Positions 7,201 through 64,000 of a stretch of 64,000 nucleotides of DNA are shown in pieces. Position 1 is the first letter of the stretch. Each line of letters begins with the position of its first letter. The translations under genes were made by a program, and so were the position numbers. This DNA is from an uncultured Rikenellaceae bacterium (GTDB lineage Bacteria; Bacteroidota; Bacteroidia; Bacteroidales; VadinHA17): NCBI GenBank assembly GCA_964435015.1, contig CAYSXP010000001.1:344-64343 (forward strand), given 5' to 3'. The notes under the pieces were generated by a model. That model did no database searches. It saw nothing but the letters and a program-made list of their open reading frames with translations, and was not told the DNA's origin.

Positions 7201-8061
7201 TGGACCACAGACAAGAAGAAGAATGACAGCATAAAGCAGCTTCTTCATAATTACATCATCAAGTACAAGGAGATTGACGGGGTCTACAAGCGCAAAAAAT
7301 ACACCATTACCATTGGCGATGAGCTGCCAGCAGGAATAGTCAGGCTTGCAAAGGTTTACGTTGCAAAGAAACGCAAGGTTAAAGTGGGTGACAAAATGGC
7401 TGGCCGTCATGGCAACAAGGGAATTGTTGCCAGGATCGTTCGCCAGGAAGATATGCCTTTCCTGGAAGACGGCACTCCTGTCGATATAGTTCTCAATCCC
7501 CTGGGCGTTCCTTCAAGGATGAACCTCGGTCAGATATATGAAACCGTCCTTGGCTGGGCCGGACAGAAGCTTGGCCTTCAGTTCGCAACTCCTATTTTCG
7601 ATGGAGCCACCATCGATCAGATTAATGAATACACTGAGAAGGCAGGATTGCCCAAATATGGTAAGACATATCTGTATGACGGAGGAACAGGTGAAAGGTT
7701 CGATCAGCCTGCAACCGTTGGCGTGATATACATGATGAAACTTGGCCACATGGTCGACGACAAAATGCATGCCCGTTCCATCGGGCCATACTCTCTTATC
7801 ACCCAGCAGCCTCTCGGAGGGAAGGCACAGTTCGGGGGACAGAGGTTTGGTGAAATGGAAGTATGGGCCCTAGAGGCATTCGGAGCGGCCCATATCCTTC
7901 AGGAGATACTTACCATCAAGTCGGACGACGTTATCGGAAGGGCCAAAGCCTATGAATCTATTGTAAAAGGAGAACCGCTGCCTCAACCGGGCATTCCGGA
8001 ATCGCTGAACGTGCTGCTGCACGAACTCAGAGGATTGGGCCTTAGTGTTATACTTGATTAA
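4252..8061 (+). CDS. rpoB: DNA-directed RNA polymerase subunit beta
   Basis: 1269 aa with conserved blocks [27 protein letters not shown] and [19 protein letters not shown]. Confidence 0.99.
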
Positions 8062-12820: not shown

Positions 12821-12886
12821 GATGGAATCCATATAGGGAGAACTATTAATCAGACAAATATTTGATCATCATGCATATGGATTCAC
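12821..12886 (+). repeat. Hairpin repeat, copy A0 (divergent member of the GATGRAAYCC family)
   Basis: GATGGAATCCATAT...(loop containing CAGACAAATA)...ATATGGATTCAC. There is a perfect 10-bp stem GAATCCATAT/ATATGGATTC, and the termini resemble copies A-E. Confidence 0.5.
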
Positions 12887-12937
12887 GGGCCGGCAGGTGA
12901 TCCGGGCATCAGGCCAGTAAAAGAAAAATTCGATACT

Positions 12938-13031
12938 GATGAAACCCGCATGACTGACCAGAAACACAAACACGAATGATTATCGCGTTCAATCATGTGG
13001 GGCTCCCTGTCCGAGGGGTCAGACAGGCATC
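12938..13031 (+). repeat. Hairpin repeat module, copy A (upstream of the DUF2520 gene)
   Basis: GATGAAACCCGCATGACTGA-[CCAGAAACACAAACACGAATGATTATCGCGT]-TCAATCATGTGGGG, then a GC-rich second hairpin and GGGGTCAGACAGGCATC. 12951-13000 matches the reverse complement of 26181-26230 at 47/50 positions (manual ungapped alignment). Confidence 0.8.
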
Positions 13032-13057
13032 AGACCGATAAAATAAATTATATACGT

Positions 13058-13846
13058 ATGAAAAATACAGGGATCTCATTCATCGGAGCCGGTAAGGTAG
13101 CCGCGGCTTTTTGTTCAGAACTTTATAATTCGGGTTATAAGATAGTCAGTATAGTATCGAAAACCGGCGATAGCTGTCGTCAGCTGGCCGGATCATGTAA
13201 GGCCTCATGGTCGGTGGCCACTGAATTTAAGGAAGATACCGGCCTTATACTGATCGCGGTACCCGATGACAGGATCGAAACGGTGGCTGCCGGTATAAAA
13301 TGCAGTGAAAACACAGTTATTGCACATACTGCGGGAAGTGTGGGACTTGATGTATTTCATCACCGCCACAGGCATGTGGGTGTAATATATCCCCTTCAGA
13401 CTTTTTCGGCTGGCAGAAACATCGAATTCAGTAAAATTCCGTTCTTCATTGAGGGAAGTGACAGTGCTGCCACTTCCCTTCTCTGCGGATTGGTTGAGTC
13501 GTTCGGGGCAAAGGCGCACTTCACAGATGCGAAAAACAGGAGGCTGCTGCATTTGTCGGCTGTTTTCGTGAACAACTTCGTAAACCATATGCTGGTTTCA
13601 GGCAAAACCATTGCCTCCATGGCCGGATTTGAATTCGAAGTACTCATTCCGCTGCTCAATGAGACTGTGATGAAAGCTGTCATCAACGGACCGGAGAACT
13701 CACAGACAGGTCCGGCCGTAAGGTCAGATCATGAAACTATCAGAAGTCATATTAAATTATTATCTTTCTCGCCTGATCTGCAAAATATTTACAGGGAAGT
13801 AACAGATTCAATCATGAGTTTTCAAAAAACGAACATAAATGAATAA
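13058..13846 (+). CDS. Rossmann-fold plus DUF2520-like protein (putative oxidoreductase)
   Basis: MKNTGISFIGAGKVAAAF is a GxGxxA dinucleotide fold. The C-terminal part has TGPAVRSDHETI, typical of DUF2520. ATG 13058 is preferred over 12995 because the extension lies inside repeat copy A. Confidence 0.75.
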   Translation: MKNTGISFIGAGKVAAAFCSELYNSGYKIVSIVSKTGDSCRQLAGSCKASWSVATEFKEDTGLILIAVPDDRIETVAAGIKCSENTVIAHTAGSVGLDVFHHRHRHVGVIYPLQTFSAGRNIEFSKIPFFIEGSDSAATSLLCGLVESFGAKAHFTDAKNRRLLHLSAVFVNNFVNHMLVSGKTIASMAGFEFEVLIPLLNETVMKAVINGPENSQTGPAVRSDHETIRSHIKLLSFSPDLQNIYREVTDSIMSFQKTNINE

Positions 13847-18266: not shown

Positions 18267-19169
18267 TCAGTATGATCTTATTTTCCTTAGCTTGTCGTCA
18301 TATTGCTTGTAAACAGCTTCCTGCAGCCTGATCTGATCTTTAACCTTGTCCTGCATCTTTTCATTGCGCGGGATCTCAGCCTCAGCTCTTTCTATGCCGG
18401 ATTTGGCCTTTTTGATTTTTTTCTCCGATGATTCGATGGAATTAACAGCTTTTTTCCGTCTTTTCTCCAGATCCTTTACAGCCTGAGCCTTTTCCTTCTT
18501 CATCGGATTATCTTCTTCCATGGCAATAAGCTCCTGGTTCTGGACATCAAGAGTGCTTGTTACCAGGCTCAGTTCATTTTTCTGTACTGTGATGTTCTCC
18601 TGTTCCCTGAGAATGGAGCTATTCGCAGTCTGAATCGATTTCTGGAGCTTCTTGGATTTTTCTCTCTGAAGTGATGAAAGTTCCTTTTCAAGATCACGAA
18701 GCTTCTTCTGTTCCAGGTCAGCTTCCTGCTTTGCCACGGCGATGTACTGGGTTTTTGAGAACTCTTTCAGGTAGTTGGTGGCTTTTGCATATTCTGCTGC
18801 CCCCCCCCTGCTTTCAACATAGAAATCCTTTTTCAGTTCAAACGAGACCACGAGCTGCAGCATAAGGTCGAATTTTTTCAGTACGCTGTAAACATTCAGG
18901 GGATCTGAACTTACAGCCTTGATCCGCGCTCCAAAGATCGACATTTCCCCATTGTCGGTTACCACTTTTGATTTGGTACCTGTTTGAAGTTCCTTGATCC
19001 ATACTTTCAGAACCTTGTCGTAATCGGCTTCCGGAATTGTAACAGATATTGCCGGCAGATTGCTGTTTCCGATCATAAGGCTGTCATCAAGGACAGTAAT
19101 TGGTGTCTGGGCCCTGATTGCAGAAAAGAGTACTAAAAAAACTAAAATGAAGGTAAATTTTAATCTCAT
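18267..19169 (-). CDS. Secreted hypothetical protein with a long K/E-rich coiled-coil C-terminal half
   Basis: Signal peptide MRLKFTFILVFLVLFSAIRAQ, an N-terminal globular part of about 130 aa, then heptad-like charged sequence (EQKKLRDLEKELSSLQREKSKKLQKS...). No family was recognised. Confidence 0.6.
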   Translation of the reverse strand: MRLKFTFILVFLVLFSAIRAQTPITVLDDSLMIGNSNLPAISVTIPEADYDKVLKVWIKELQTGTKSKVVTDNGEMSIFGARIKAVSSDPLNVYSVLKKFDLMLQLVVSFELKKDFYVESRGGAAEYAKATNYLKEFSKTQYIAVAKQEADLEQKKLRDLEKELSSLQREKSKKLQKSIQTANSSILREQENITVQKNELSLVTSTLDVQNQELIAMEEDNPMKKEKAQAVKDLEKRRKKAVNSIESSEKKIKKAKSGIERAEAEIPRNEKMQDKVKDQIRLQEAVYKQYDDKLRKIRSY

Positions 19170-25208: not shown

Positions 25209-26117
25209 CTATACCCACTCCTCACTTATAACATCTCCGGCCAGGCTCACGACAATCTGCTTTACAGGCACCTTTCGCGAGGCCTTCGACATGGCCGCCC
25301 TGGTCATCTGCAGCAGGCCCCCGCAGCAGGGCACTTCCATTCTGAGTACGGTTATTGTATTGATTTTAGCCAGTTCTGCCATCGCGGCCAGCTTTTCCAC
25401 ATAGATATCAAGGCCCTGATCGAGCTTGGGGCATGCAATTGCGAGTGATTTTCCCCTCAGATACCTGCTGTGAAAATTACCCATTGAAAAAGCTGCACAG
25501 TCTGCTGCAAGGAGCAGATCGGATCCTCTGAGATAAGGGGCATTGGGGTTAAGGAGATGCATCTGGACGGGCCATTGCCTGAGCTCCGATGGCTGATCCT
25601 TCAGTGCGGCCATTTCATTGCTTTCATGAGATCTTTCCAGTATCATGGATCGCGATCCCGGACAACCCCCTCCTGATGCATTATGATTGTGCCTTTGACT
25701 GTCAGCCGTATCTGATAATGCTTTTTTGCCATGATTACCGATCTCATCCATGATTTCGGCAAGGCTGAAATCAAGATCAGCCTGATTGTCTTTCAGATAA
25801 TTGTATGCTTCATTGAAGAAACCTTCCTCGCCATGATCTTTCAGATGTTTAAGATGGGCAACAATTGTGTTCTTTCCCCTGGCGGTCATCTGCTCAATAA
25901 CCTTTATTTCATTGTAAGGCTCAGCTTCCCTGGTCTCAATGGTAATTGCTCCCTCCGGACAGTAACCAATACAGGCACCAAGCCCGTCGCACATCAGTTC
26001 ACTTACCAGCCTTGCCTTGCCGTCGATTATCTGAATGGCCCCCTCATGACAGTTAGGGACGCACAAACCGCAGCCATTGCACTTTTCTTCGTCAATATTT
26101 ATAATGTCTCTTTTCAT
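25209..26117 (-). CDS. 4Fe-4S dicluster domain protein with a Cys-rich C-terminal domain
   Basis: From MKRDIINIDEEKCNGCGLCVPNCHEGAI...CDGLGACIGYCPEGAI (2x[4Fe-4S]). The C-terminal part has ACPKLDQG and VPCCGG. ATG 26117 is chosen; the upstream extension to 26186 enters repeat copy B. Confidence 0.75.
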   Translation of the reverse strand: MKRDIINIDEEKCNGCGLCVPNCHEGAIQIIDGKARLVSELMCDGLGACIGYCPEGAITIETREAEPYNEIKVIEQMTARGKNTIVAHLKHLKDHGEEGFFNEAYNYLKDNQADLDFSLAEIMDEIGNHGKKALSDTADSQRHNHNASGGGCPGSRSMILERSHESNEMAALKDQPSELRQWPVQMHLLNPNAPYLRGSDLLLAADCAAFSMGNFHSRYLRGKSLAIACPKLDQGLDIYVEKLAAMAELAKINTITVLRMEVPCCGGLLQMTRAAMSKASRKVPVKQIVVSLAGDVISEEWV

Positions 26118-26147
26118 ACGTAAATGATTTGTTTTTTTATAAAGCCG

Positions 26148-26241
26148 GATGCCTGTCTGACCCCCCCCGGGCAGGCAACCACACATGATTGAACGCGATA
26201 ATTATTCGTGTTTGTGTTTCTGGTCAATCATGCGGATTCAT
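26148..26241 (-). repeat. Hairpin repeat module, copy B (upstream of the 4Fe-4S protein gene)
   Basis: The reverse complement reads ATGAATCCGCATGATTGA-[CCAGAAACACAAACACGAATAATTATCGCGT]-TCAATCATGTGTGG...GGGGTCAGACAGGCATC. It is almost identical to copy A and has the same orientation relative to its downstream gene. Confidence 0.8.
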
Positions 26242-26352
26242 ATTTTCTGTTTTTCCGCTGCAAATCTGGAGAAAATAATGTCAGCAATTGCAAAATATGC
26301 TACATATCGTATATTATACCCGGTTGTTCAGGAGGGTTCCCGGCTGTATTTT

Positions 26353-28456: not shown

Positions 28457-30565
28457 TTATTCCAGGCCCCTGTTTTTCAGGAGGGCGTCTATTCCCGGCT
28501 CTTTTCCCCTGAAAGCCATATACATGTCGAGGGGGTCGCGGGTGCCGCCCCTGGATAGTATTTCCTTCTCAAATCTCGATGCCACATCCCTGTTGAAGAT
28601 GTCACCTGTTTCCCTGAAAGCGAGAAAAGCATCGGCGTCAAGCATTTCGCTCCAGTAGTAGCTGTAGTATCCTGCAGCGTATCCCGAACTCCAGATATGA
28701 TTGAAATAGGTCGATCTGTATCTTGGTTTGATCTCATCCGGCAATCCGTATTTATCCATGGCTTTTTTTTCGAACTGCCTGATATCGATATCGGCTGGCT
28801 CGGTAATTGTGTGGTACTCCATGTCGAGAAGAGCAGCAGCAAGAAACTCGACTGTTGTAAATCCCGTGTTGAATTTGCCTGCCCTGTCGAGTTTTTCCAC
28901 AATTTCTGCAGGAATAACCTCGCCGGTCAGGTAATGCTTTGCATATACCTGCAGCACTTCGGGTTCGAGGACCCAGTGCTCCATAATCTGGGAAGGAAGC
29001 TCTACAAAATCGCGCGGTACGGAAGTGCCCGATACACCCGGATAGGTGGAATTCGAAAGAAGCTGGTGCAGTGCATGTCCGAATTCATGGAACAGTGTAC
29101 TCGCTTCATCGGCAGTGAGCAGTGAAGGTTTGTCAGCCCCGGGTGGTGTTGAGTTGGTGACCATTGTGACAACAGGTGTTATCATTTTACCGTTTATGTC
29201 ACGACTCTGCCCTCTCATGGCCCCGCACCAGGCTCCTGCTCTTTTGGATTCCCTGGGATAGTTGTCGATCATCAGGATGCCCATGTGCTTTCCGTCCCTG
29301 GTTACTTCATAGGTAACAACATCCGGATGGTATACGGGAATATCGTTGCGGACACTGAATGTAAGATTGTACAGCCTCTCAGCAACATAAAACATACCTT
29401 CAATCACATTGTCTATCCTGAAGTAGGGTCTTGTTATCTCGTCATCAAGGTCGTACTTTTCCTTTTTTATCTTTTCGGCATAGTACCACCAGTCCCAGGG
29501 CGCCAGCTTGAATTGTCCGCCTTCTCTGTTGATGATCTCCTGCATGGCCTTAACTTCAGTCTTTGCCGCGGGTATTGCCGCATTCCAGACCTGACCAAGG
29601 AAATCCATGACCCTTTCCGGTGTTTTAGCCATGCTTTTTTCCAGTGCAAAACCGGCATATGTTCTGTATCCCAGGATCTTTGACCTTTCGAGCCTGAGCC
29701 TTGCTATCCGGGCGATGATTGATTTGTTGTCCCTTTCATTGTCATTATCACCTTTCATGAAGTAGGCTGTAAACAGCTTTTCCCTCAGTTTTCGATTTTC
29801 CGCATACTTCAGAAACGGCTCCATTATCGGGTACTGGATTGTAAAAACCCATTTCCCGTCCATATTCATGTTTTTTGCCAGTGCTGCTGCCTGTTCAACA
29901 ATACCATCAGGCAGGCCTGCAAGATCCTCACGCCTGTCAATAACAAGCCTGAATGCATTTGTCTCCGCAAGGAGATTCTGGCCAAACTGAACAGACAGAA
30001 GTGACAGTTCTTCATTTAACTTCCGCAGTTTTGCCTTGTCGTCCTGCGACAGTGCTGCTCCGCTCCTCACAAATCCCCTGTAGGTATCTTCAAGAACCAT
30101 TCTTTCCTCTTCCGTGAGCCCGAACCTGTCGCGGTTCTCATAAACCGTCCTGACTTTCAGAAAAAGAGTGTCATTGAGATTGATATCATCCCTGTGCCTG
30201 GCTGACAGAGGAGCTATTTCCCTGTTTATTGCCTGCAATGAGTCATTTGTATGAGCCGAGTTAAGTGATCCGAAAATCCTGCTCACCCTGGTCAGCAGCT
30301 CTCCGCTGTATTCAAGTGCTTTTATCGTATTCCCGAAATCCGGCTCCACCGGATCGTCAATTATTCTTCTTACGGCCAGTTTCTGTTCCTCAAATCCTTT
30401 TAAAAAAGCAGGCATAAAGTGCCGGGCTTTTATCAGATCGAAAGGCGGCACTTCAAACGGAGTATTAAATTCATTTAACAGGGGATTGTCAGATTTCTCC
30501 GTTTTTTTGCACGATGCAGATATCATAATCATAATTCCAATTAGTAATAAGGCTTTTTTCATCAT
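28457..30565 (-). CDS. dcp: M3 family peptidyl-dipeptidase
   Basis: 702 aa with a lipoprotein-type signal (ISASC), the zinc motif HEFGHALH, and length and sequence typical of Dcp/oligopeptidase A. Confidence 0.88.
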   Translation of the reverse strand: MMKKALLLIGIMIMISASCKKTEKSDNPLLNEFNTPFEVPPFDLIKARHFMPAFLKGFEEQKLAVRRIIDDPVEPDFGNTIKALEYSGELLTRVSRIFGSLNSAHTNDSLQAINREIAPLSARHRDDINLNDTLFLKVRTVYENRDRFGLTEEERMVLEDTYRGFVRSGAALSQDDKAKLRKLNEELSLLSVQFGQNLLAETNAFRLVIDRREDLAGLPDGIVEQAAALAKNMNMDGKWVFTIQYPIMEPFLKYAENRKLREKLFTAYFMKGDNDNERDNKSIIARIARLRLERSKILGYRTYAGFALEKSMAKTPERVMDFLGQVWNAAIPAAKTEVKAMQEIINREGGQFKLAPWDWWYYAEKIKKEKYDLDDEITRPYFRIDNVIEGMFYVAERLYNLTFSVRNDIPVYHPDVVTYEVTRDGKHMGILMIDNYPRESKRAGAWCGAMRGQSRDINGKMITPVVTMVTNSTPPGADKPSLLTADEASTLFHEFGHALHQLLSNSTYPGVSGTSVPRDFVELPSQIMEHWVLEPEVLQVYAKHYLTGEVIPAEIVEKLDRAGKFNTGFTTVEFLAAALLDMEYHTITEPADIDIRQFEKKAMDKYGLPDEIKPRYRSTYFNHIWSSGYAAGYYSYYWSEMLDADAFLAFRETGDIFNRDVASRFEKEILSRGGTRDPLDMYMAFRGKEPGIDALLKNRGLE

Positions 30566-30590
30566 AATATAATTTTGATTTTAACGGTAT

Positions 30591-30660
30591 GATGGAACCC
30601 ACATGTTGATAAAATTATATTTATATGTGTTTGTGTTAGTAATAACATGTGGGTTTCATC
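30591..30660 (-). repeat. Hairpin repeat, copy C (immediately upstream of dcp)
   Basis: The reverse complement reads GATGAAACCCACATGTT-[ATTACTAACACAAACACATATAAATATAATTTTATC]-AACATGTGGGTTCCATC, a 17-bp stem with one mismatch. It ends 25 nt from the dcp ATG. Confidence 0.75.
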
Positions 30661-30685
30661 ATTTTATAATTTTTATTTTAATGGT

Positions 30686-30774
30686 ATGAAGCCTGCCTGA
30701 TTCCCCGTACAGGATACATGCATGTTGAAAATGATAAATTTGCGGTTTGGATTTTGCATACAGGCGGGTTTCAT
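30686..30774 (-). repeat. Hairpin repeat, copy D (tandem to C, divergent stem)
   Basis: The reverse complement reads ATGAAACCCGCCTG-[TATGCAAAATCCAAACCGCAAATTT...]-CAGGCAGGCTTCAT. The termini and CAAAC core match the family, but the CACATG/CATGTG stem segment is replaced by a complementary GCCTG/CAGGC pair. Confidence 0.6.
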
Positions 30775-30900: not shown

Positions 30901-31425
30901 GCATGAGACCTGTTGTTATAATTAACCCCGATGAGCCGGTATTGCTAATTGACCATATAGAAAAAAGAAAAGGAAAGATAGTTGGGAGTTATCTTTCCTT
31001 CATTAACCTAAACCTGATCGTAGAATTTGGCCGAACGGCCTATAAAGAAATCTTATATATTTTATGTTATTTTTCCTTCCGGAAAATAACCGTAATATCA
31101 AAGAACCTATTTTTCATCTCTCGTTACACCATATAGACGTACGAGACTGCCAAATTGTTGCATAAACCATTGTTAATGTTATGTTAATTTTTGTGATTTA
31201 TTTTCCTGCATCAGCAGAGTCGGTGGTAATTTTTGCATAACTTTCTGCATTATAAGTAATTATGCTTACAGGTATGAGACACCGGTTCATGATGCTGCGG
31301 TTAGGGCGCCATCTTTACTGCTGCCTTATGTTTTATTCCCTGTGATTTGCGGGAAAGACCAGCTGCGTCGCCCCGTTCTGCATCCTTCCTCATTTTTTCT
31401 TCATTCAACCAGTCGTTTGGATTCC

Positions 31426-31806
31426 ATGCGAGGTCTCATTTTCAACATAAAACGCTTTTCAATTCATGATGGTCCGGGTATACGGGTCACCTTCTTCATG
31501 AAGGGATGTCCGCTTTCGTGCCGGTGGTGTCATAATCCGGAAGGACTGTCCGGGAAGGAAGAACTGTTCAATAACAGCAGAAAACTTGACAGTTATGAAT
31601 TTGAGAGCATTGAAAAGGCAGGTGAATATTATGATGTGAGTGAAATTCTGCAGATACCGGATAAAGAACAGGTATTTATCAGGGAGTCGGACGGGAGCGT
31701 TACTTTTTCCGGAGGAGAGCCTTTCATGCAGCCGGGGTTCCTGCTCGGGGCGTTGAAGGCATGCAAGGAAAGCGGATATCATACTGGTTTTTATCTGAAA
31801 GAATAA
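31426..31806 (+). pseudogene. Glycyl-radical enzyme activating enzyme (radical SAM), 3'-truncated remnant
   Basis: MRGLIFNIKRFSIHDGPGIRVTFFMKGCPLSCRWCHNPE (CxxxCxxC) ...VTFSGGEPFMQPGFL...GYHT, then a stop after about 126 aa. Family members are roughly twice as long. Confidence 0.7.
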
Positions 31807-31823
31807 TTTATGAATACTGAAAA

Positions 31824-33095
31824 ATGATTTTATCCGACAGAATAAAGAAGCTGCGTGAGCAGAGCCTTAATGCCGTGGAAACTATTTCAGCCGAGAGGGC
31901 TGAGCTTGTCACGCGTTTTTACAGGAGCGACGGGGCCCGTGAGATTTCCCCTCCCGTAAGAAGGGCAAAGGCATTCGAATACATCCTCAGGCACAAAACC
32001 ATTTGCATAAATGACGGGGAGCTGATAGTCGGTGAACGTGGTCCGGCTCCGAAGTCGGTTCCGACATACCCTGAAATATGTGTCCATTCAATCCCCGACC
32101 TTGAGATACTTGACACGAGGCAGAAGGTCTCTTTCAGGGTCAGCGGGGAGGTGAAAAAGGTATATCGTGAAGAAATAATCCCTTTCTGGCAGGGTAAAAG
32201 CAACCGCGACAGGATAATGGGCCTGATGACTCCCGGATGGTTGGATGCCTATAACGCGGGTATATTCACTGAATTTCTGGAGCAGAGGGCGCCGGGGCAT
32301 ACCGTTGCGGGGTATAAAGTGTTCAGTACCGGATTCAGTCAGCTCAGGAAAGAAATAGATGATGGTCTTGCAGGGCTTGACTTTATAAATGACAGGGATG
32401 CTTTTGCGAAGTCGGAGGAGCTTAAGGGGATGGGCATTGCCTGTGATGCGATTATCATGTATGCCGGGCGCCATGCCGGTGAGCTTGAAAGGCTGGCCCT
32501 GCCGGAACGGGATGAGGTATGGAAGGCCAAACTGCTGGAAATGGCCCGCATCTGCAGGAAGGTGCCGGCTGAAGCTCCCGAAACCGTTCATGAGATGCTT
32601 CAGCATTACTGGTTCATTCACCTGGGGGTTATTACCGAGCTCAATCCCTGGGATTCTTTCAGCCCGGGCCGCCTCGACCAGCATCTTTACAGGGTGTTTA
32701 AAAAAGAAAGGGAAGACGGCAGCCTTTCAGATGAAAAGCTCTTTGATCTCCTCGGGTGCTTCTGGATAAAGTTTAACAACCATCCCACTCCTCCGAAGAT
32801 CGATCATCTGATGACCGGAGGTACCTTGCTGAATCAGAAATTCACGCCGCAGTTCTTCGGGGGTGAGGACAGCTTCCATTGTCTGACTGCCCTTATCAGG
32901 AGCTATTTCAGCCTTGACAGCCACCATATACAGTTCAATGTTGTCGATGCGGCGACCCTGCGTGATGCGCAGAGGCATCCTGAATTATACAGGGATCTGA
33001 TAGTCAGGGTTGCCGGTTACAGCGATTATTTCAATAAGCTTGGAGATGATTTGCAGAATGAAATAATCATGAGGACCGAGCACGGGGATGCATGA
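31824..33095 (+). pseudogene. Glycyl radical enzyme (PFL-like/dehydratase class) with a large in-frame internal deletion
   Basis: 423 aa. About 325 aa of a typical GRE N-terminus (MILSDRIKKLREQ...FWIKFNNHPTPPK) are joined directly to the C-terminal ~95 aa carrying the glycyl radical motif (HHIQFNVVDAATLRDAQRHPELYRDLIVRVAGYSDYF). The catalytic Cys-loop region is absent. Confidence 0.7.
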
Positions 33096-39351: not shown

Positions 39352-39594
39352 TGTCATGCGGATTTGCCGGGGCAGTGGCATCGCGGCGGATTTTCGTCCT
39401 GTCTTTGCATCCGCACTCAATTATAAAATTAAACCGGACATGACGAACGAGGGTTATCAGATTAGCTTATTTGAGATGAAACCCGGATGAGTGTATTTTA
39501 AATGCAGGCACATTAAGGATGAAAATTGTTGTCATTTGCAGTTTCTCCTTTATCTGCAGGGCGGGAGAACAACAAATAAAATCAAAATCATACT

Positions 39595-40866
39595 ATGATG
39601 AAACAGAATGAATTTGGCAGGCGCAGGTTCCTTAAGAAGAGCACGGCTGCCCTTTTTGCTTTTACCATTGTTCCCAGGCATATTCTGGGAGGGACGGGCT
39701 ACACGGCTCCTTCCGACCAGCTCACCAAGGGAATTATCGGAGTTGGCGGCATGGGCCGCGGGCACATTGAATATGAGGGGACGCGGCTTCTTGCAGTCTG
39801 TGATGTGGATAAAAATCATCTGGCCCTGGCAATTGCGCAGGCAGGCGGAAAAGTTGACGCTTACCACGATTTCAGGGAGCTGCTGATGCGGCCTGATATT
39901 GATATAGTGCATATTGCGACGCCTCCGCACTGGCATGGCATTATTGCCAAAATGGCTGCAGAAGCCGGCAAGGACATATGGTGTGAAAAACCGATGACCA
40001 GGACGATAGGCGAGGGGATAAAACTGGTGAAGGCGGTTCAGGAACACGGAAGGATGTTCAGGCTGAACACATGGTTCAGGTTCAAGGACCAGTTCTACGG
40101 CCTGGGATCAACCGTTAAGCCGCTTAAGAAGCTTATTGACAGCGGTGTGCTTGGATGGCCGCTGAAAGTAACCGTCAGCGGTACCACGGGATATGACTGG
40201 AAATTCTTCTGGAGCGGCCTGCACAACCTCACGCCGATGCCTGTTCCTCCCGAGCTTGATTATGATTTCTGGCTCGGCCCCGCACCATATAAGCATTATA
40301 ATCCGGAAAGGGTGCACAACAAGTTCAGGGGATACTGGGACTATGACGGAGGCGGGCTGGGAGACATGGGGCAGCATTATCTCGACCCGGTGCAATACAT
40401 GCTCGGCGAGGATGATACGGGACCGGTATCGGTTGAAATAGATGCTCCCCAGCAGCATTATGATGCAGTGGGATCGTGGAGAAGAATAACCTACACCTAC
40501 GCCGACGGATGCAAAATAATACTCGATGGCGAGAACCGCGATAAGGACGCAGCATACATTGAAGGACCCCATGGTAAAATTTACAGGGGGTTCAGAACCG
40601 ACATAAAAGATGTACACAGGCTGATCGATTCCCTTCCCGATCCTGAACCTCAGATAGTGACGTTTTCCGAATCGGTCAGAACAAGGAAGAAATTTGCCCT
40701 TAACGAAGCCAACGGGCACAGGTCGTGTTCGATAGTCAATCTTGGGATTGTAGCTTTGCGGCTCGGAAGAAACCTGAAATATGATCCTGTGAAGCAGGAG
40801 TTCATTGATGATGAAGGTGCCAACAGGCTGATAAACCAACCCATGAGGGGAGAGTGGAAAATGTGA
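39595..40866 (+). CDS. Gfo/Idh/MocA family oxidoreductase with a twin-arginine signal
   Basis: MMKQNEFGRRRFLKKSTAALFAF is a TAT motif, and GIIGVGGMGRGH is a Rossmann fold. Length is 423 aa. Confidence 0.85.
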   Translation: MMKQNEFGRRRFLKKSTAALFAFTIVPRHILGGTGYTAPSDQLTKGIIGVGGMGRGHIEYEGTRLLAVCDVDKNHLALAIAQAGGKVDAYHDFRELLMRPDIDIVHIATPPHWHGIIAKMAAEAGKDIWCEKPMTRTIGEGIKLVKAVQEHGRMFRLNTWFRFKDQFYGLGSTVKPLKKLIDSGVLGWPLKVTVSGTTGYDWKFFWSGLHNLTPMPVPPELDYDFWLGPAPYKHYNPERVHNKFRGYWDYDGGGLGDMGQHYLDPVQYMLGEDDTGPVSVEIDAPQQHYDAVGSWRRITYTYADGCKIILDGENRDKDAAYIEGPHGKIYRGFRTDIKDVHRLIDSLPDPEPQIVTFSESVRTRKKFALNEANGHRSCSIVNLGIVALRLGRNLKYDPVKQEFIDDEGANRLINQPMRGEWKM

Positions 40867-46695: not shown

Positions 46696-46740
46696 ATGAC
46701 ATCCGCATGATTTTTCTCAGGAAGGAATACATGAGGATCC
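46696..46740 (+). repeat. Short hairpin repeat, copy E2
   Basis: ATGACATCCGCATGA-[N19]-CATGAGGATCC. The stem ATCCGCATG/CATGAGGAT pairs at 8 of 9 positions. The 5' arm is nearly identical to that of copy B (ATGAATCCGCATGA). Confidence 0.45.
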
Positions 46741-46844
46741 TGTTCATTATCAACCGGGCCCGCCGGGCCGTCGGAGACAGCAACGTGCGGTTTTCCCGTT
46801 TTCCGGGGGGCAGGCGCCCGGCTTTAATAAACACATTATTTACC

Positions 46845-46907
46845 GATGAAACCCACATGATACAAAATCACAAACAAGCATGAAAATAAAATTCATGTGG
46901 GTTCCAT
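46845..46907 (+). repeat. Hairpin repeat, copy E (upstream of proC)
   Basis: GATGAAACCCACATGA-[TACAAAATCACAAACAAGCATGAAAATAAAAT]-TCATGTGGGTTCCAT. The 15-nt 5' terminus and 14-nt 3' terminus are identical to copy C. It ends 42 nt before ATG 46950. Confidence 0.75.
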
Positions 46908-46949
46908 TCGAACCACTTAATCTTCAGTAGTATATTAATTTATTTTCAC

Positions 46950-47777
46950 ATGAAAAACATGAAGATTGCGATTCTTGGCGGAGGAAATATTGGTACTTCA
47001 CTTGCCGGAGGATTGATTAAATCAAAATTATGCGACTATGACAGTATTATGATCACGGATAAGCGGGAGGCAAGGCTCAGTTATCTGGGGGGCAGGGGGT
47101 TCAGGACCTCATCAGACAACAGGGAAGCGGTTGGTTTTGCCGATTGTGTGATACTTTCGGTCAAACCCCAGCAGTTCGAGGGTTTGTCGGAGGAAATAAT
47201 GGATTCCGCCGGCAGGGATAAGATCATTATATCAACCATTACCGGAATTGGGTTCACTGATCTGGAGAAGCGCCTGGGAAAGAGGGAGCTGATCAGGATC
47301 ATGCCCAATACGGCGCTTGAGATATGTGAATCGATGACGTGCATTTCATTCAGGAATACTGACAGGGGTACTGAAGAATCGATAGTCGCACTCTTCGACC
47401 GGCTTGGAAAAACCATGGTGATACCCGAGGATCTTATGAGTGCAGCGACGGTTATAGGCGCTTGCGGGGTGGCATTTGCCCTCAGGTTCATGAGAGCCAT
47501 GTCGCAGGGCGGGATCGAAATAGGTTTCAATTCGGAGGTCTCACAGATTATCACGGCACAAACCGTAAAGGGTGCGGCCCGGCTTATGCTTGAGACCTTA
47601 AATCATCCGGAAAGTGAGATCGACAAGGTAACCACGCCGCAGGGAATAACCATTTCGGGGCTCAATGAGATGGAACACCAGGGCCTCAGTTCTGCCGTTA
47701 TCCGCGGGCTGACAACATCGTTCAACAAACTTGAAAGTATGCTTTCCGGATCCGGGAACCACAATGTCCTGAGATGA
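46950..47777 (+). CDS. proC: Pyrroline-5-carboxylate reductase
   Basis: MKIAILGGGNIGTSLAGGL NAD fold, ILSVKPQQ, and C-terminal VTTPQGITISGL, typical of ProC. Confidence 0.88.
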   Translation: MKNMKIAILGGGNIGTSLAGGLIKSKLCDYDSIMITDKREARLSYLGGRGFRTSSDNREAVGFADCVILSVKPQQFEGLSEEIMDSAGRDKIIISTITGIGFTDLEKRLGKRELIRIMPNTALEICESMTCISFRNTDRGTEESIVALFDRLGKTMVIPEDLMSAATVIGACGVAFALRFMRAMSQGGIEIGFNSEVSQIITAQTVKGAARLMLETLNHPESEIDKVTTPQGITISGLNEMEHQGLSSAVIRGLTTSFNKLESMLSGSGNHNVLR

Positions 47778-62174: not shown

Positions 62175-62291
62175 GAGGCGGAGCCCCTGCATTTATGGCT
62201 GTGTTTGCAGGCCGGCCGGAATAACCGGAGAAACGCGAAGGCTGCCGGAAGATATGTTGAAGTTCAAGTGATTTAAGCCAGTAACTGAGAG

Positions 62292-64000
62292 ATGCTGTTC
62301 ACAATTCATGTTAACAACAAAAAGATAAAGGCCGAGAAGGGGGAAACCATACTGTCGGCTCTTAACCGCAACGGCATCATCATCCCTACCCTGTGCAGGA
62401 TGAAGGAGTTCACTCCGACCGGGGCATGCAGGATGTGTGTGGTTGAGGTAGAGGGAAAAGAGAGGCTCGTCACTGCCTGTTCCCAGCCTGTTGAGGAATG
62501 GATGAGGATCAGAACCCACTCGCCGAGGGTGATCACCGCCCGTAAAACCATCGTTGAACTCCTTCTTTCCAACCATCCCGACGATTGCCTTTATTGTGAC
62601 AGGAATCTTAACTGTGAACTGCAGAATCTGTCTGAGGAACTCAATATCAGGGAAAGGAGGATCAAGGGAAAAAAGATTAAACCCCGCCTCGACCAGTCGA
62701 GCCCTGCAATTGTAAGGGAGCTGGCAAAATGCATACTCTGCGGCAGGTGCGTAAGGGTATGCGAGGAGGTCATAACCTGCACATCGCTTGACTTTATCAA
62801 CAGGGGAGGAGAAACCCATGTAGGTGCCGCAATGGACAAGGATTTTAATTTCTCCAGCTGCATTCAGTGCGGACAGTGTGCCCTTGTCTGCCCTACCGGG
62901 GCGCTGCACGAAAAATACAATATTGCCGAGGTTCAGGAATATCTTAACAAGCATGATATCGTTAAGGCTATTCAGTATTCCCCCTTTGTTCCTGCCGGCA
63001 TAGCTGAGGAGCTCGGGATCAGGTACAACAGGGATTTTGACAAGAATCTGAATGCGATCCTCCGCAAAATCGGCTTCGACAGGATCTACTCAACAGGTAC
63101 GGGCACAGATTTATGCATATCTGAACTGGCTGACCAGCTCTCGGAAAAACTTGATAATAAAGATGAGAACCCTCTTTATATAACGGCATGCCCGGCCTGG
63201 GTCAAATTTGCGGAGCAGTCGGTGCCGGAAATTATTCCCTGTCTGTCGACGGTTAAGTCGCCGCAGCAGATAGCAGGGATACTGATAAAGACCATTGTTG
63301 CCGATCAGCTGAAAGTTCAGCCCGACAAGATATTCTCGGTTTCCGTATCTCCGTGCATGGCAATGAAGTATGAGGCAAGGCGCGACGGAATGATGAGAAA
63401 GGGTATCAGCGACGTTGATTCGGTGATGACTGTGCGTGAGCTTGCCAGGCTGATCAGGCTTTACGGGATTGATGTATTCAATACTGCCAGGGAGCCGGCT
63501 GACGAACCCCTTGCCGGCAGGAGCTCCCTGGCGGTGCTTGCTGAGCTGTCGGGCGGACTGGCGGAAGGTGTTGTCAGGCTCGTCTCATATCGGCTGACGG
63601 GAAAGGATCCTGACAGGCAGATGCTGAAAAAGCTCAGGGGCTCGGGTTCATTCAGGGATTGCACGGTAAAGGCGGGGGATACGGAGGTGAGGGTCGCTGT
63701 GGTTGACGGCCTTACAGGGCTTGAGAAGCTCAACAATGCATTTCAGGCCGGAGCAAAATATCACCTGGTTGAAGTCATGGCCTGTCCGGGCGGCTGCATT
63801 CACGGCGGCGGGCTCCCGAAGATCGCATCAAGGGAGGATCTGAAAAACAGGGCCAGGCTGATATGGCAGTCCGATGAAACAGAGGCAATATCACTGCCTG
63901 AAAAGTCGCCTTCATTCATAGGCCTCTGCGACAAACTGATAAAGGAAAACAGGGAGATAAGTGACCGAAGAATATTTCATACTCATTTTGAAAAGAAGGA
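62292..64000 (+). CDS. [FeFe]-hydrogenase HydA-like subunit (M3 architecture), 3'-partial, non-canonical active-site pocket
   Basis: Open frame from ATG 62292 to the window end; it is absent from the supplied track because no stop is reached. It reads MLFTIHVNNKKIKAEKGETILSAL...CRMCVVEVEG (2Fe-2S), HPDDCLYCDRNLNC, CILCGRCVRVC, CIQCGQCALVCP, and H-domain motifs ITACPAW, SPCMAMKYE and EVMACPGGCIHGGGLP. Confidence 0.85.
   Translation, partial: MLFTIHVNNKKIKAEKGETILSALNRNGIIIPTLCRMKEFTPTGACRMCVVEVEGKERLVTACSQPVEEWMRIRTHSPRVITARKTIVELLLSNHPDDCLYCDRNLNCELQNLSEELNIRERRIKGKKIKPRLDQSSPAIVRELAKCILCGRCVRVCEEVITCTSLDFINRGGETHVGAAMDKDFNFSSCIQCGQCALVCPTGALHEKYNIAEVQEYLNKHDIVKAIQYSPFVPAGIAEELGIRYNRDFDKNLNAILRKIGFDRIYSTGTGTDLCISELADQLSEKLDNKDENPLYITACPAWVKFAEQSVPEIIPCLSTVKSPQQIAGILIKTIVADQLKVQPDKIFSVSVSPCMAMKYEARRDGMMRKGISDVDSVMTVRELARLIRLYGIDVFNTAREPADEPLAGRSSLAVLAELSGGLAEGVVRLVSYRLTGKDPDRQMLKKLRGSGSFRDCTVKAGDTEVRVAVVDGLTGLEKLNNAFQAGAKYHLVEVMACPGGCIHGGGLPKIASREDLKNRARLIWQSDETEAISLPEKSPSFIGLCDKLIKENREISDRRIFHTHFEKK

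Follow-up and report, generated by a model that had tools for sequence, protein, structure and literature searches.

The DUF2520 gene and the 4Fe-4S protein gene of the 64-kb window (the whole 64,000-nt stretch of DNA analysed here) are preceded by nearly the same sequence, which raises the question of whether the two copies are leaders belonging to these genes or members of a family that moves. The likeness described in the earlier note was confirmed: positions 12951-13000 match the reverse complement of 26181-26230 at 47 of 50 positions, and shifting the alignment by 1-3 bases either way leaves only 10-17 matches. The window contains the 17-mer GGGGTCAGACAGGCATC at the two reported sites, 13015-13031 (+) and 26148-26164 (-), and nowhere else; shuffled sequences contained on average 0.15 matches to it and none of 100 shuffles reached two. 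A 32-nt core was found at the same two sites only, and not at all in shuffles.

Both copies, here named W1 and W2, end in ACGTATGAAAA at the ATG of their genes (13058 for the DUF2520 gene and 26117 for the 4Fe-4S gene), and structure prediction recovered the long stem, G.T pair included, as well as the GC-rich hairpin, both of which had been proposed from inspection of the letters. The downstream proteins are unrelated and the similarity ends 4 nt past the ATG; the exclusion of a gene duplication as the origin of the likeness was correct.

An nhmmer profile search of the window identified nine modules at five gene starts: besides W1 and W2, seven further diverged modules of the same family. 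All nine lie on the strand of the gene that they precede, extending to each of them the orientation rule stated for the first pair. The modules each span from an ATGAA(A) to the ATG(ATG)AAA of the gene, and the true beginnings of W1 and W2 are the upstream ATGAA(A) at 12939 and 26241, respectively. Five of the 16 ATGAA-starting genes in the window bear a module; ATGAAA sites in the window total 113. The coordinates are collected in Table 1.

Table 1. Modules and associated features in the 64-kb window.
Feature	Position	Strand	Remarks
Module X, decayed	12822-12870	+	Begins at ancestral DUF2520-gene start (CTG/ATGGAATCC)
Module Y, decayed	12871-12938	+	GC hairpin, GCATCAG and A-rich tail retained; partial nhmmer match 12865-12944, E=1.2e-8, profile positions 45-125
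Module W1	12939-13057	+	Left ATGAAA; profile match E=4.5e-30
W1 P1	12945-12957 paired with 12989-13001	+	Predicted fold
W1 GC hairpin	13006-13027	+	Followed by guide-like CATCAG, 13028-13033
Regenerated DUF2520-gene start	13058-13063	+	ATGAAA, right end of W1
Module W2	26118-26241	-	Left end ATGAAT; E=3.1e-27
Regenerated 4Fe-4S-gene start	26112-26117	-	ATGAAA
CAGATTTG	26261-26268	-	-7-box-like motif upstream of W2
Module W4a, degenerate	30660-30774	-	Upstream of M3 peptidase gene; E=6e-22; ortholog in L011
Module W4b	30563-30659	-	Gene-proximal; E=1.6e-20; P1 and P2 (CATCAT/ATGATG) intact
Module W5, degenerate	39476-39597	+	Before GFO/MocA oxidoreductase gene; E=0.0034; from ATGAAACCCGGATGA to ACT/ATGATGAAAC
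Module W3a, old	46696-46845	+	GC-rich insert; before proC; E=1.9e-16; ortholog in L132 about 70% identical (by eye, not computed)
Module W3b	46846-46949	+	Adjoins proC start at 46950; profile match

A pattern scan of metagenomes, in which the left flank was unconstrained, retrieved at least 120 loci with at least 126 modules. Among the matches listed, the left flank was ATGAA in 107 of 126 modules, and 65 of 96 non-redundant modules opened an ORF of at least 60 codons, compared with 25% of all ATGAA sites. About one third of the non-redundant modules listed were not located before a gene, and a single one of the 126 listed fell within a gene-length open frame. Copies within a subfamily are related; hence these counts overstate the number of independent events. 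Identical modules recur with differing flanks and the family uses hundreds of dispersed targets. A phage-like contig holds two copies, and one copy sits between the overlapping genes of a toxin-antitoxin pair. Random placement of the copies was what the earlier note expected to speak against a leader; since the copies abut start codons, and their placement is non-random, this objection does not arise.

The elements are 90-125 nt long. They contain one hairpin, P1, with a stem conserved in sequence, ACCCACATG(T) paired with (A)CATGTGGGT, and a loop of about 35 nt with CACAAACA. On the sense strand of the gene, P1 is followed on its 3' side by TTCCAT and a variable triplet, an optional GC-rich hairpin, an A/T-rich stretch of about 23 nt and, finally, a complementary triplet with ATGAAA. 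The A/T-rich run into the ATG to which the earlier note had drawn attention is there (in W1 the right part is an A/T-rich tail ending in ACGT), but the run and, probably, the ATGAAAA are parts of the element itself.

A second helix, P2, is formed between TTCCATNNN and the terminal NNNATGAAA. Its triplet pairs were perfectly complementary in 83 of 102 modules among the matches listed, with five covarying types. In the alignment of the helix 97% of the cells were paired, against 19-54% in slid controls; at the three variable pairs both partners had changed in 12, 21 and 29 sequences, and the observed covariation was reached by none of 500 shuffles. The consensus fold consists of P1 and P2 and has a z of about -4, as RNA and as DNA. 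The wobble pairs are biased on the sense strand, with 30 G.T and 12 A.C pairs.

P2 has been lost in the resident copies W1, W2, W3b, W4a and W5. The covariation that the earlier note had suggested looking for was found in the family, whose P2 is broken in the two copies from which the note started. A hammerhead ribozyme, brought to mind by a CUGAUGA...GAAA resemblance, was rejected because the CUG triplet covaries freely. The suggested comparison with Rfam gave no family: at gathering score nothing was obtained for W1, W2, a young copy, the window modules or 20 loci, and in E-value mode the best models were chance-level miRNA and snoRNA models, far under their gathering scores.

Orthologous loci of related Bacteroidales showed empty sites, another subfamily in the same site or additional gene-proximal copies; the genomes that lack a copy at these sites include GCA_012798035.1, GCA_964611835.1 and GCA_964613785.1. 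The spacer between the DUF3467 and DUF2520 genes is 85 nt long in L006, L008 and L009 and 317 nt long here. In L003 it reaches 418 nt and contains a tandem row of three modules, of which the first begins at the ancestral ATG; the ATG of the three empty-site orthologs aligns to the start of module X. The DUF2520 gene starts with ATGGGA or ATGGTA (Met-Gly or Met-Val) in the empty-site orthologs and with ATGAAA (Met-Lys) in the filled loci, which keep a relic ATGGAA on the left.

The 4Fe-4S site is empty in L012, is occupied by W2 here and carries a different subfamily, at the same nucleotide, in L011, a relative from which W4b is absent. W1 and W2 belong to the same GC-hairpin subfamily; W3b belongs to that of the modules which a related species has in front of its DUF2520 (L003) and 4Fe-4S (L011) genes. 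Estimates made by eye, not computed, put the identity of the W3b orthologs of two species at about 94% and that of the spacer beside them at about 70-75%. The same family precedes the M3 peptidase gene, the GFO/MocA oxidoreductase gene, proC, an antitoxin gene and a phage gene.

Of the alternatives left by the earlier note, a mobile cassette or a structured 5' UTR, mobility is supported, and a gene-specific regulatory leader or riboswitch-like element is not. The family precedes unrelated genes and forms tandem arrays, the orthologous sites of close relatives are empty or held by another subfamily, and the helix that defines the family is broken in precisely the two copies that the earlier note described.

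The motif upstream of W2, CAGATTTG, was conserved in the alignment of both filled and empty orthologous 4Fe-4S loci. It resembles TAnnTTTG, the published consensus of the Bacteroidetes -7 promoter box; with such a box at this position, W2 would fall inside the transcript. This location would also suit a broader regulatory explanation, in which the module is a structured cis-regulatory 5' UTR element controlling a host regulon and mobility is merely its mode of spread. It could act through TTCCAT switching between the old and the new ATG, or through a protein or small-RNA site at the CACAAACA loop. The sense-strand position in the presumed transcript and the preference of that strand for G.T over A.C are in line with this explanation, as is the predicted pairing, in which P2 sequesters the start codon and an alternative extension of P1 sequesters the old ATG; the conservation of the W3b orthologs relative to the spacer might reflect purifying selection at the host level instead of parallel insertion. 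We consider host regulation decidedly unlikely, however: the downstream genes have no function in common, the same genes occur without the element in close relatives, about one third of the copies listed lack a downstream gene, five of the resident copies have lost P2, tandem copies are found as decaying arrays, and Rfam holds no matching family.

No terminal inverted repeats were found across 106 aligned copies: the left terminus, CCCACATG, is not complementary to the right NNNATGAAA, and the right termini read ...TTCTG, ATTATG or TTCAC. There is only one hairpin of the P1 type, the right end being P2, sometimes with an unrelated GC hairpin in addition. The left and right hexamers are identical in about 85% of the copies among the matches listed, and locus L146 has ATAAA on both sides. 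This is what a 5-6-bp duplication of the target ATGAA(A) would give if the element were a classical MITE that depended on a DDE transposase and had inverted repeats too short or too degenerate to be seen; tandem arrays and presence/absence polymorphism would suit any transposon.

In about six loci, however, the left flank is AAGAA and the right end is ATGAAA, and the empty DUF2520 sites read ATGGGA or ATGGTA where the filled ones read ATGAAA, which indicates that the right-hand ATGAAA probably belongs to the element. It also participates in the covarying helix inside the element. Among DDE elements, a target specificity of 5-6 nt as strict as this one is rare. Unlike a classical MITE, the family lacks terminal inverted repeats of at least 10 bp, its left and right hexamers differ in several loci, and the check for IS and MITE termini proposed in the earlier note revealed no known terminus that matches. 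A classical MITE therefore appears unlikely.

If the terminal ATGAAA is shared by element and target, it could also be the crossover core of an attC-like cassette, on whose folded strand a site-specific recombinase would act. The same core is indeed present at both junctions, tandem units are separated by a single core, the structure is conserved with covariation and the same site was hit repeatedly. We regard a cassette of this kind as very improbable, since the core is ATGAAA and the alignment contains neither a GTTRRRY-type core nor the paired R''/L''...L'/R' boxes of integron attC sites, no integrase was found near the modules by Pfam analysis of the window, the targets are hundreds of scattered sites and not one attachment site, and the P1 stem, in contrast to that of attC sites, has a conserved sequence.

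The bias of wobble pairs to the sense strand brings in a further explanation, spread through RNA, by which a 5' UTR module would be reverse-transcribed or reverse-spliced into ATGAAA with TTCCAT as an exon-binding sequence. Introns pair with their exon flanks through EBS-IBS interactions, and the pairing of the internal TTCCAT with the upstream flank resembles these. An element of about 100 nt is nevertheless below the size of any known self-splicing intron, no ribozyme family matched and no reverse transcriptase was seen; RNA-mediated spread is scarcely credible.

We consider it likely that W1 and W2 are aged copies of a large non-autonomous mobile family of the single-strand type, IS200/IS605-like or REP-like, present in uncultured Bacteroidales, which inserts 3' of ATGAA(A) and restores the start codon. 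Insertion would take place in a single orientation, directly 3' of ATGAA(A), and the surviving copies would be those whose target hexamer made up codons 1 and 2 of a gene. The old ATG would be left upstream and the terminal ATGAAA of the element would become the new in-frame Met-Lys start; the 5' UTR would therefore grow by about 100 nt with each copy, and repeated insertion would generate the tandem arrays. We infer that the mobile form is a folded single strand, moved by an enzyme acting in trans. Through base pairing, the internal TTCCAT(NNN) would recognise the target ATGAA as well as NNNATGAAA, the right end of the element, as IS608 guides recognise their cleavage sites.

In IS608 a guide pairs with the cleavage site, insertion occurs 3' of a short target, and no DNA is lost or gained (PMC3201880). 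The family resembles the IS200/IS605 elements (IS608, PATEs) in the lack of terminal inverted repeats and, apparently, of target-site duplication, in its insertion in a fixed orientation 3' of a short sequence that remains as the left flank, in its near-end hairpin, and in a short stretch within the element that pairs with the target as well as with the element's own end. The target being retained, tandem re-insertion is possible.

It differs from them in several respects. Similar subterminal palindromes are not found at both ends: the right end is a helix that includes the terminal nucleotides and is without a P1-like hairpin for protein recognition. In IS608 the guide is on the 5' side of the foot; here TTCCAT is 3' of the P1 foot on the sense strand, which the G.T pairs favour, and would be 5' of it on the opposite strand only. 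The element has a target of 5-6 nt that is identical to its right end, and the family is specialised for start codons. In the window, modules lie on the + strand at 12.9, 39.5 and 46.8 kb and on the - strand at 26.2 and 30.7 kb, and the GC skew is mostly positive; the use of both strands under a near-uniform skew argues against a replication-strand bias like that of IS608 and indicates that orientation tracks the gene.

REP, BIME and REPIN sequences are short, high-copy, non-coding hairpins, the movement of which has been attributed to a HUH nuclease, RAYT (TnpA-REP), that is encoded in single copy and acts in trans (PMC3333891, PMC8266576). The present family is likewise short, non-coding, present in high copy number and provided with a hairpin. 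REPs are GC-rich palindromes of 20-40 nt with a 5' tetranucleotide of the GTAG type and are located mostly after genes, whereas the elements described here are 90-125 nt long, A/T-rich outside P1, have a 35-nt loop and are located at gene starts. The Correia elements of Neisseria and other MITEs are non-autonomous repeats of about 100-150 nt near gene starts, which are co-transcribed and can alter expression. In Correia elements the termini are inverted repeats and a TA is duplicated, and these elements neither sit on a start codon nor supply one; the family is without such repeats, sits on the start codon and supplies a new one. In a large survey of MITEs based on terminal inverted repeats and target-site duplications, the phrase 'start codon' is absent from the main text (PMC11602168). 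Our literature search found no description of the sequence, of MITEs that target start codons or of a matching PATE.

The source of the enzyme was sought in the window and in the collected loci. Pfam identified no transposase domain among the window ORFs, and no full-length parent element was seen in the window or the loci. Neither a Y1 transposase nor TnpB was found there; tblastn of the 836 kb of window and loci, with an approximate IS608 TnpA probe, gave no Y1 match below E=0.6. The consensus had no BLASTN match in plasmids and phages, and the 20-mer of the P1 3' arm produced one chance match, to an alphaproteobacterium, in a collection of genome contigs that apparently does not include the source species. 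In viral contigs, a palindromic pattern for P1 alone returned mostly unrelated 41-nt terminator hairpins beside tRNA genes; the true family members in that search were L030 and L036 only.

The reading frame opened by the old ATG was also analyzed. Among the matches listed, 69 of 93 modules keep this ORF open until 40 nt or less before the new ATG, compared with 15.6 expected from shuffles, and clusters of its stop codons lie at -21/-20, -14 and -2, counted from the new ATG. In many subfamilies the old-ATG ORF would cross the element and stop 2-21 nt before the new ATG or overlapping it. Ribosomes that load at the native initiation region could unfold P1 and P2 on their way and initiate a second time, so that the insertion would cost the host little.

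Other selfish elements persist by limiting the damage to the invaded gene in different ways: Rickettsia palindromic elements do so by keeping the reading frame, IStrons by self-splicing. In the family described here the damage would be limited by its own ATGAAA, put in place of the gene's initial two codons, and, often, by an upstream ORF that ends beside the new start. Two other roles for the upstream ORF were considered and rejected: a leader-peptide attenuator of the His type, as the ORF MTDQKHKHE*/MIDQKHKHE* is found in W1 and W2 only and is not a feature of the family, and a small-protein gene, as the peptide shifts frame between subfamilies (TCGFH versus MWVPS).

It is possible, although we would put it forward only tentatively, that these sequences represent a new class of miniature single-strand elements that home to translation starts, carry TTCCAT as a guide to ATGAA, exchange the two initial codons for their own ATGAAA, are translated through and are served by an enzyme that could be reprogrammed through the guide.

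The modules have a direct effect on annotation, since gene callers extend proteins through them, so that a protein of 262 aa is called as 283 aa and one of 302 aa as 325 aa. About 10% of the genes in these Bacteroidales would have 100-400 nt of extra structured 5' UTR, which must affect translation in a phylum that is not known to depend on Shine-Dalgarno pairing. If the new class were real, about one gene start in ten would be occupied at little cost to the host, and the choice of target by base pairing in an element of about 100 nt would be a natural case outside IS608, possibly a reprogrammable one. A selfish element would then live in a compact genome by replacing the start codon and not by sitting between genes.

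Comparison of W1 and W2, the copies first noticed before the DUF2520 and 4Fe-4S protein genes, confirmed the homology proposed in the earlier note: 47 of 50 positions are identical in the register given there, versus 10-17 at neighbouring offsets. The 17-mer said to be shared is identical in both copies and occurs just twice in the window, as does a 32-nt core, and ACGTATGAAAA closes both copies at the start codon, as had been claimed. The ATGs behind them open the DUF2520/Rossmann-like gene (13058) and the 4Fe-4S protein gene (26117); the likeness stops 4 nt past the ATG. Owing to an indel, the common 17-mer lies in differing reading frames in W1 and W2, so its conservation is not protein-coding.

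A profile made from the first copies was used to search the window for further modules.

Modules and decayed units located in the window
Unit	Position	Strand	Context
X	12822-12870	+	decayed unit in tandem upstream of W1
Y	12871-12938	+	decayed unit in tandem upstream of W1
W1	12939-13057	+	before DUF2520 gene
W2	26118-26241	-	before 4Fe-4S protein gene
W4a	30774-30660	-	before M3 peptidase gene; profile match
W4b	30659-30563	-	before M3 peptidase gene; profile match
W5	39476-39597	+	before GFO/MocA oxidoreductase gene; profile match
W3a	46696-46845	+	before proC; profile match
W3b	46846-46949	+	before proC; profile match

All units in the window share the strand of the gene behind them. Each opens with ATGAA(A)CC(C)RCATG, and next comes the ATG(ATG)AAA of the following unit or gene. 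An ATGAA start is found in 16 of the 45 ORFs of the window, with modules at five of these 16; ATGAAA occurs at 113 sites on both strands. No transposase domain was detected by Pfam in the window ORFs. By database naming, the nearest proteins to those of the window are Bacteroidales MAG proteins. Two ORFs, of 300 aa (18267-19169, -) and 253 aa (62193-62954, -), had no Pfam match; the former is syntenic with unannotated ORFs of the relatives L003, L008 and L009.

The gene order of the window is rpoB-rpoC-DUF3467-DUF2520-HAD-UbiA-Maf. Between DUF3467 and DUF2520, three relatives with 74-76% protein identity (L006, L008, L009) have a spacer of 85 nt with a terminator hairpin and a promoter-like stretch, then CTG directly followed by ATGG. 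The spacer measures 317 nt in the window; that of an 82% relative (L003-L005) reaches 418 nt and contains three diverged modules in tandem. The ancestral DUF2520 ATG is exactly where the first module starts at both filled loci. The 4Fe-4S site, occupied by W2 in the window, is empty in a 78% relative (L012), where GGCAAAA runs directly into ATGAAAAGAGAC, and at the same nucleotide an 87% relative (L011) carries a module of a different subfamily, the one found at proC in the window and at the DUF2520 gene in L003. At the M3 peptidase locus, L011 has the outer module alone and the window an additional intact gene-proximal one; at proC, both modules are also present in the relative L132. These comparisons show a mobile, non-autonomous and oriented module family, which inserts at ATGAA(A), after which the gene starts with ATGAAA. 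The earlier reading of the shared upstream unit as a mobile or regulatory cassette was half right: mobility stood, a dedicated regulator did not.

By eye, the proC-proximal module (46846-46949) is about 94% identical to L132:2071-2174 between the two species; the adjoining module and upstream spacer reach only about 70-75%. This excess could be due to recent insertions in parallel, to conversion from other copies or to constraint. In L006 (1673-5968; GCA_964611835.1) rpoC appears as two ORFs of 410 and 954 aa with a gap between, likely a frameshift or assembly error. At 31342-33095 the window encodes a PFL-like glycyl-radical enzyme of 423 aa and an activase of 126-154 aa, probably decaying pseudogenes; the L012 counterparts have 789 and 266 aa, and in L011 no gene is called there.

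Structure was counted on an alignment of 106 sequences (A3). The conserved hairpin, P1, is a nearly invariant 10-bp stem (ACCCACATGT/ACATGTGGGT); nine of its pairs were fixed by the search pattern, so P1 carries little evidential weight of its own. Of the inner pairs left free, the first is formed in 84 of 94 unique cores. The region 3' of P1 was unconstrained by the pattern and includes a second helix, P2, in which TTCCAT and a triplet are complementary to a right-end triplet and ATG. The triplet types are CAG/CTG, CAT/ATG, GTG/CAC, CCG/CGG and ACG/CGT, with perfect complementarity in 83 of 102 parsed units. In the formal count 97% of cells are in standard pairs; when partners were slid by 1-3 columns as a control, 19-54% were paired. 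Both-sided changes at the three variable pairs occur in 12, 21 and 29 sequences, a covariation reached by none of 500 shuffles. The consensus fold comprises P1 and P2 (z = -4.1 as RNA, z = -4.07 as DNA). On the gene-sense strand there are 30 G.T pairs versus 12 A.C pairs, an excess suggesting that the sense strand is the one that folds, as DNA or mRNA. An alternative partner for TTCCAT is the left ATGAA, which extends P1 with one mismatch (fold of W3b); this pairing and that with the right end are mutually exclusive.

No terminal inverted repeats were found in the 106-sequence alignment. The matching right-hand ATGAAA could be read as half of a 5-6-bp target duplication, but three things argue that it is more probably part of the element: it lies within the covarying helix; about six loci, mostly not gene starts, pair a left AAGAA with a right ATGAAA; and the DUF2520 gene starts with ATGGGA or ATGGTA (Met-Gly or Met-Val) at empty sites and with ATGAAA (Met-Lys) at filled ones. 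The window retains ATGGAA at the old DUF2520 start position.

Metagenome contigs were scanned with a pattern of P1 and the loop motif that specified neither the left flank nor any base 3' of P1; this yielded at least 126 modules in at least 120 loci (772 kb). Those listed stem from many different samples, one labelled activated sludge. Among the 126 modules listed, the five bases left of the pattern are ATGAA in 107 and AAGAA in nine (about six distinct loci), the others being single variants; unit length is mostly 94-96 nt, or 113-119 nt with a GC hairpin; identical units occur with differing flanks; and the median pairwise identity in the commonest subfamily is 93%. One contig with phage-family proteins has two copies directly before a ATGATGAAA gene start. 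In the contig L170, the ORF translations read as a RelE/Gp49-like gene with an HTH partner, a unit lying between the two; the first ORF continues into the module, so the end of the upstream protein was probably rewritten by the insertion. This toxin-antitoxin-like pair, module included (L170:7442-8578), sits within a CRISPR array, with a lone repeat at 7442 on one side and, from 8549, the main repeat run on the other. The family had no match in Rfam or in plasmid and phage records, and no description in the literature searched.

The IMG/VR contigs L013-L051 (e.g. L016:2218-2258) contain a perfect hairpin of 41 nt, AAACCCGCATGA...TCATGCGGGTTT(T), located 3' of apparent tRNA genes, at least six different ones (flanks read by eye); it resembles an intrinsic terminator common to them. 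Over 12-15 nt the hairpin stem matches the P1 5' arm of W1 (AAACCCGCATGACTG) exactly, through either coincidence or common origin.

Position relative to genes was counted in the loci listed for 96 non-redundant units, none with another unit directly behind. Of these, 65 start an ORF that spans 60 codons or more (or reaches the locus end) and 31 only a short ORF; as background, ORFs of 60 codons or more begin at 25% of all ATGAA sites in these loci. Only one of the 126 listed units lies within a long open frame. The element is thus confined to intergenic DNA and is strongly concentrated at gene starts, though some copies lie elsewhere. A target requirement for ATGAA(A) and loss of gene-breaking insertions are enough to explain this position; start regions may also be actively targeted, but such targeting need not be invoked.

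Read from the old ATG, left of the module, frame 0 meets no stop before the last 40 nt ahead of the new ATG, or runs past that ATG, in 79 of the 106 unique units; the other two frames do so in 13 each, copies of one subfamily not being independent. For ATG-starting units alone the figure is 69 of 93, versus 15.6 expected with shuffled interiors. Stops cluster at -21/-20, -14 and -2 from the new ATG, the last being a UGAUG overlap; about a quarter of units, W1, W2 and W3b among them, have a 4-7-codon upstream ORF instead. A protein gene was rejected, as the peptide changes frame between subfamilies. The open frame may reflect selection for read-through and re-initiation.

An ATG in the hairpin 3' arm is in frame with the DUF2520 and 4Fe-4S genes, and gene callers start there. 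The called DUF2520 protein (P0001; window 12995-13846) has 283 aa versus 262 aa from the new ATG and in orthologs, and the called 4Fe-4S protein (P0121; window 25209-26186) 325 aa versus 302 aa from the new ATG and about 300 aa in orthologs. The added N-terminal residues, translated through the module, are therefore annotation artefacts caused by the element.

A putative trans-acting enzyme would move the element in the form of a folded single strand, and TTCCAT(NNN) may read the target as well as the right end by base pairing. In IS608, the cleavage sites base-pair with guide tetranucleotides adjacent to the foot of the hairpin, and insertion occurs 3' of TTAC, the target being retained with no DNA gained or lost (PMC3201880). 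The likeness lies in the internal guide pairing with target and end that we infer for the module family. However, the modules have one hairpin, not two, on the favoured strand their guide flanks the foot on the side opposite to that in IS608, and they show no replication-strand bias. No Y1 transposase was found by tblastn with an approximate probe in the 836 kb of window and loci. Given these real differences, we describe the family as working like such an element and do not file it under IS200/IS605.

W1 and W2 represent a GC-hairpin subfamily, with relatives among the metagenome loci listed that include L098, L101 and L170. The triplets of their guides, CAG and CCG, have lost their match to the common ACGT before the ATG, P2 is not predicted in either, and fold z-scores are just -1.95 and -1.53. 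W1 has a C.A mismatch within P1; the G.T pair of P1 is G-C in the strain variant L001. Both copies look like old residents, probably immobile and today merely the 5' UTRs of their two genes. Promoter-like motifs upstream of the insertion point are conserved across filled and empty loci, so that an inserted element would be transcribed as an added 5' UTR. W1 and W2 belong to a widespread, hitherto undescribed element family, as far as the literature searched goes, with an unusual habit of supplying the start codon.
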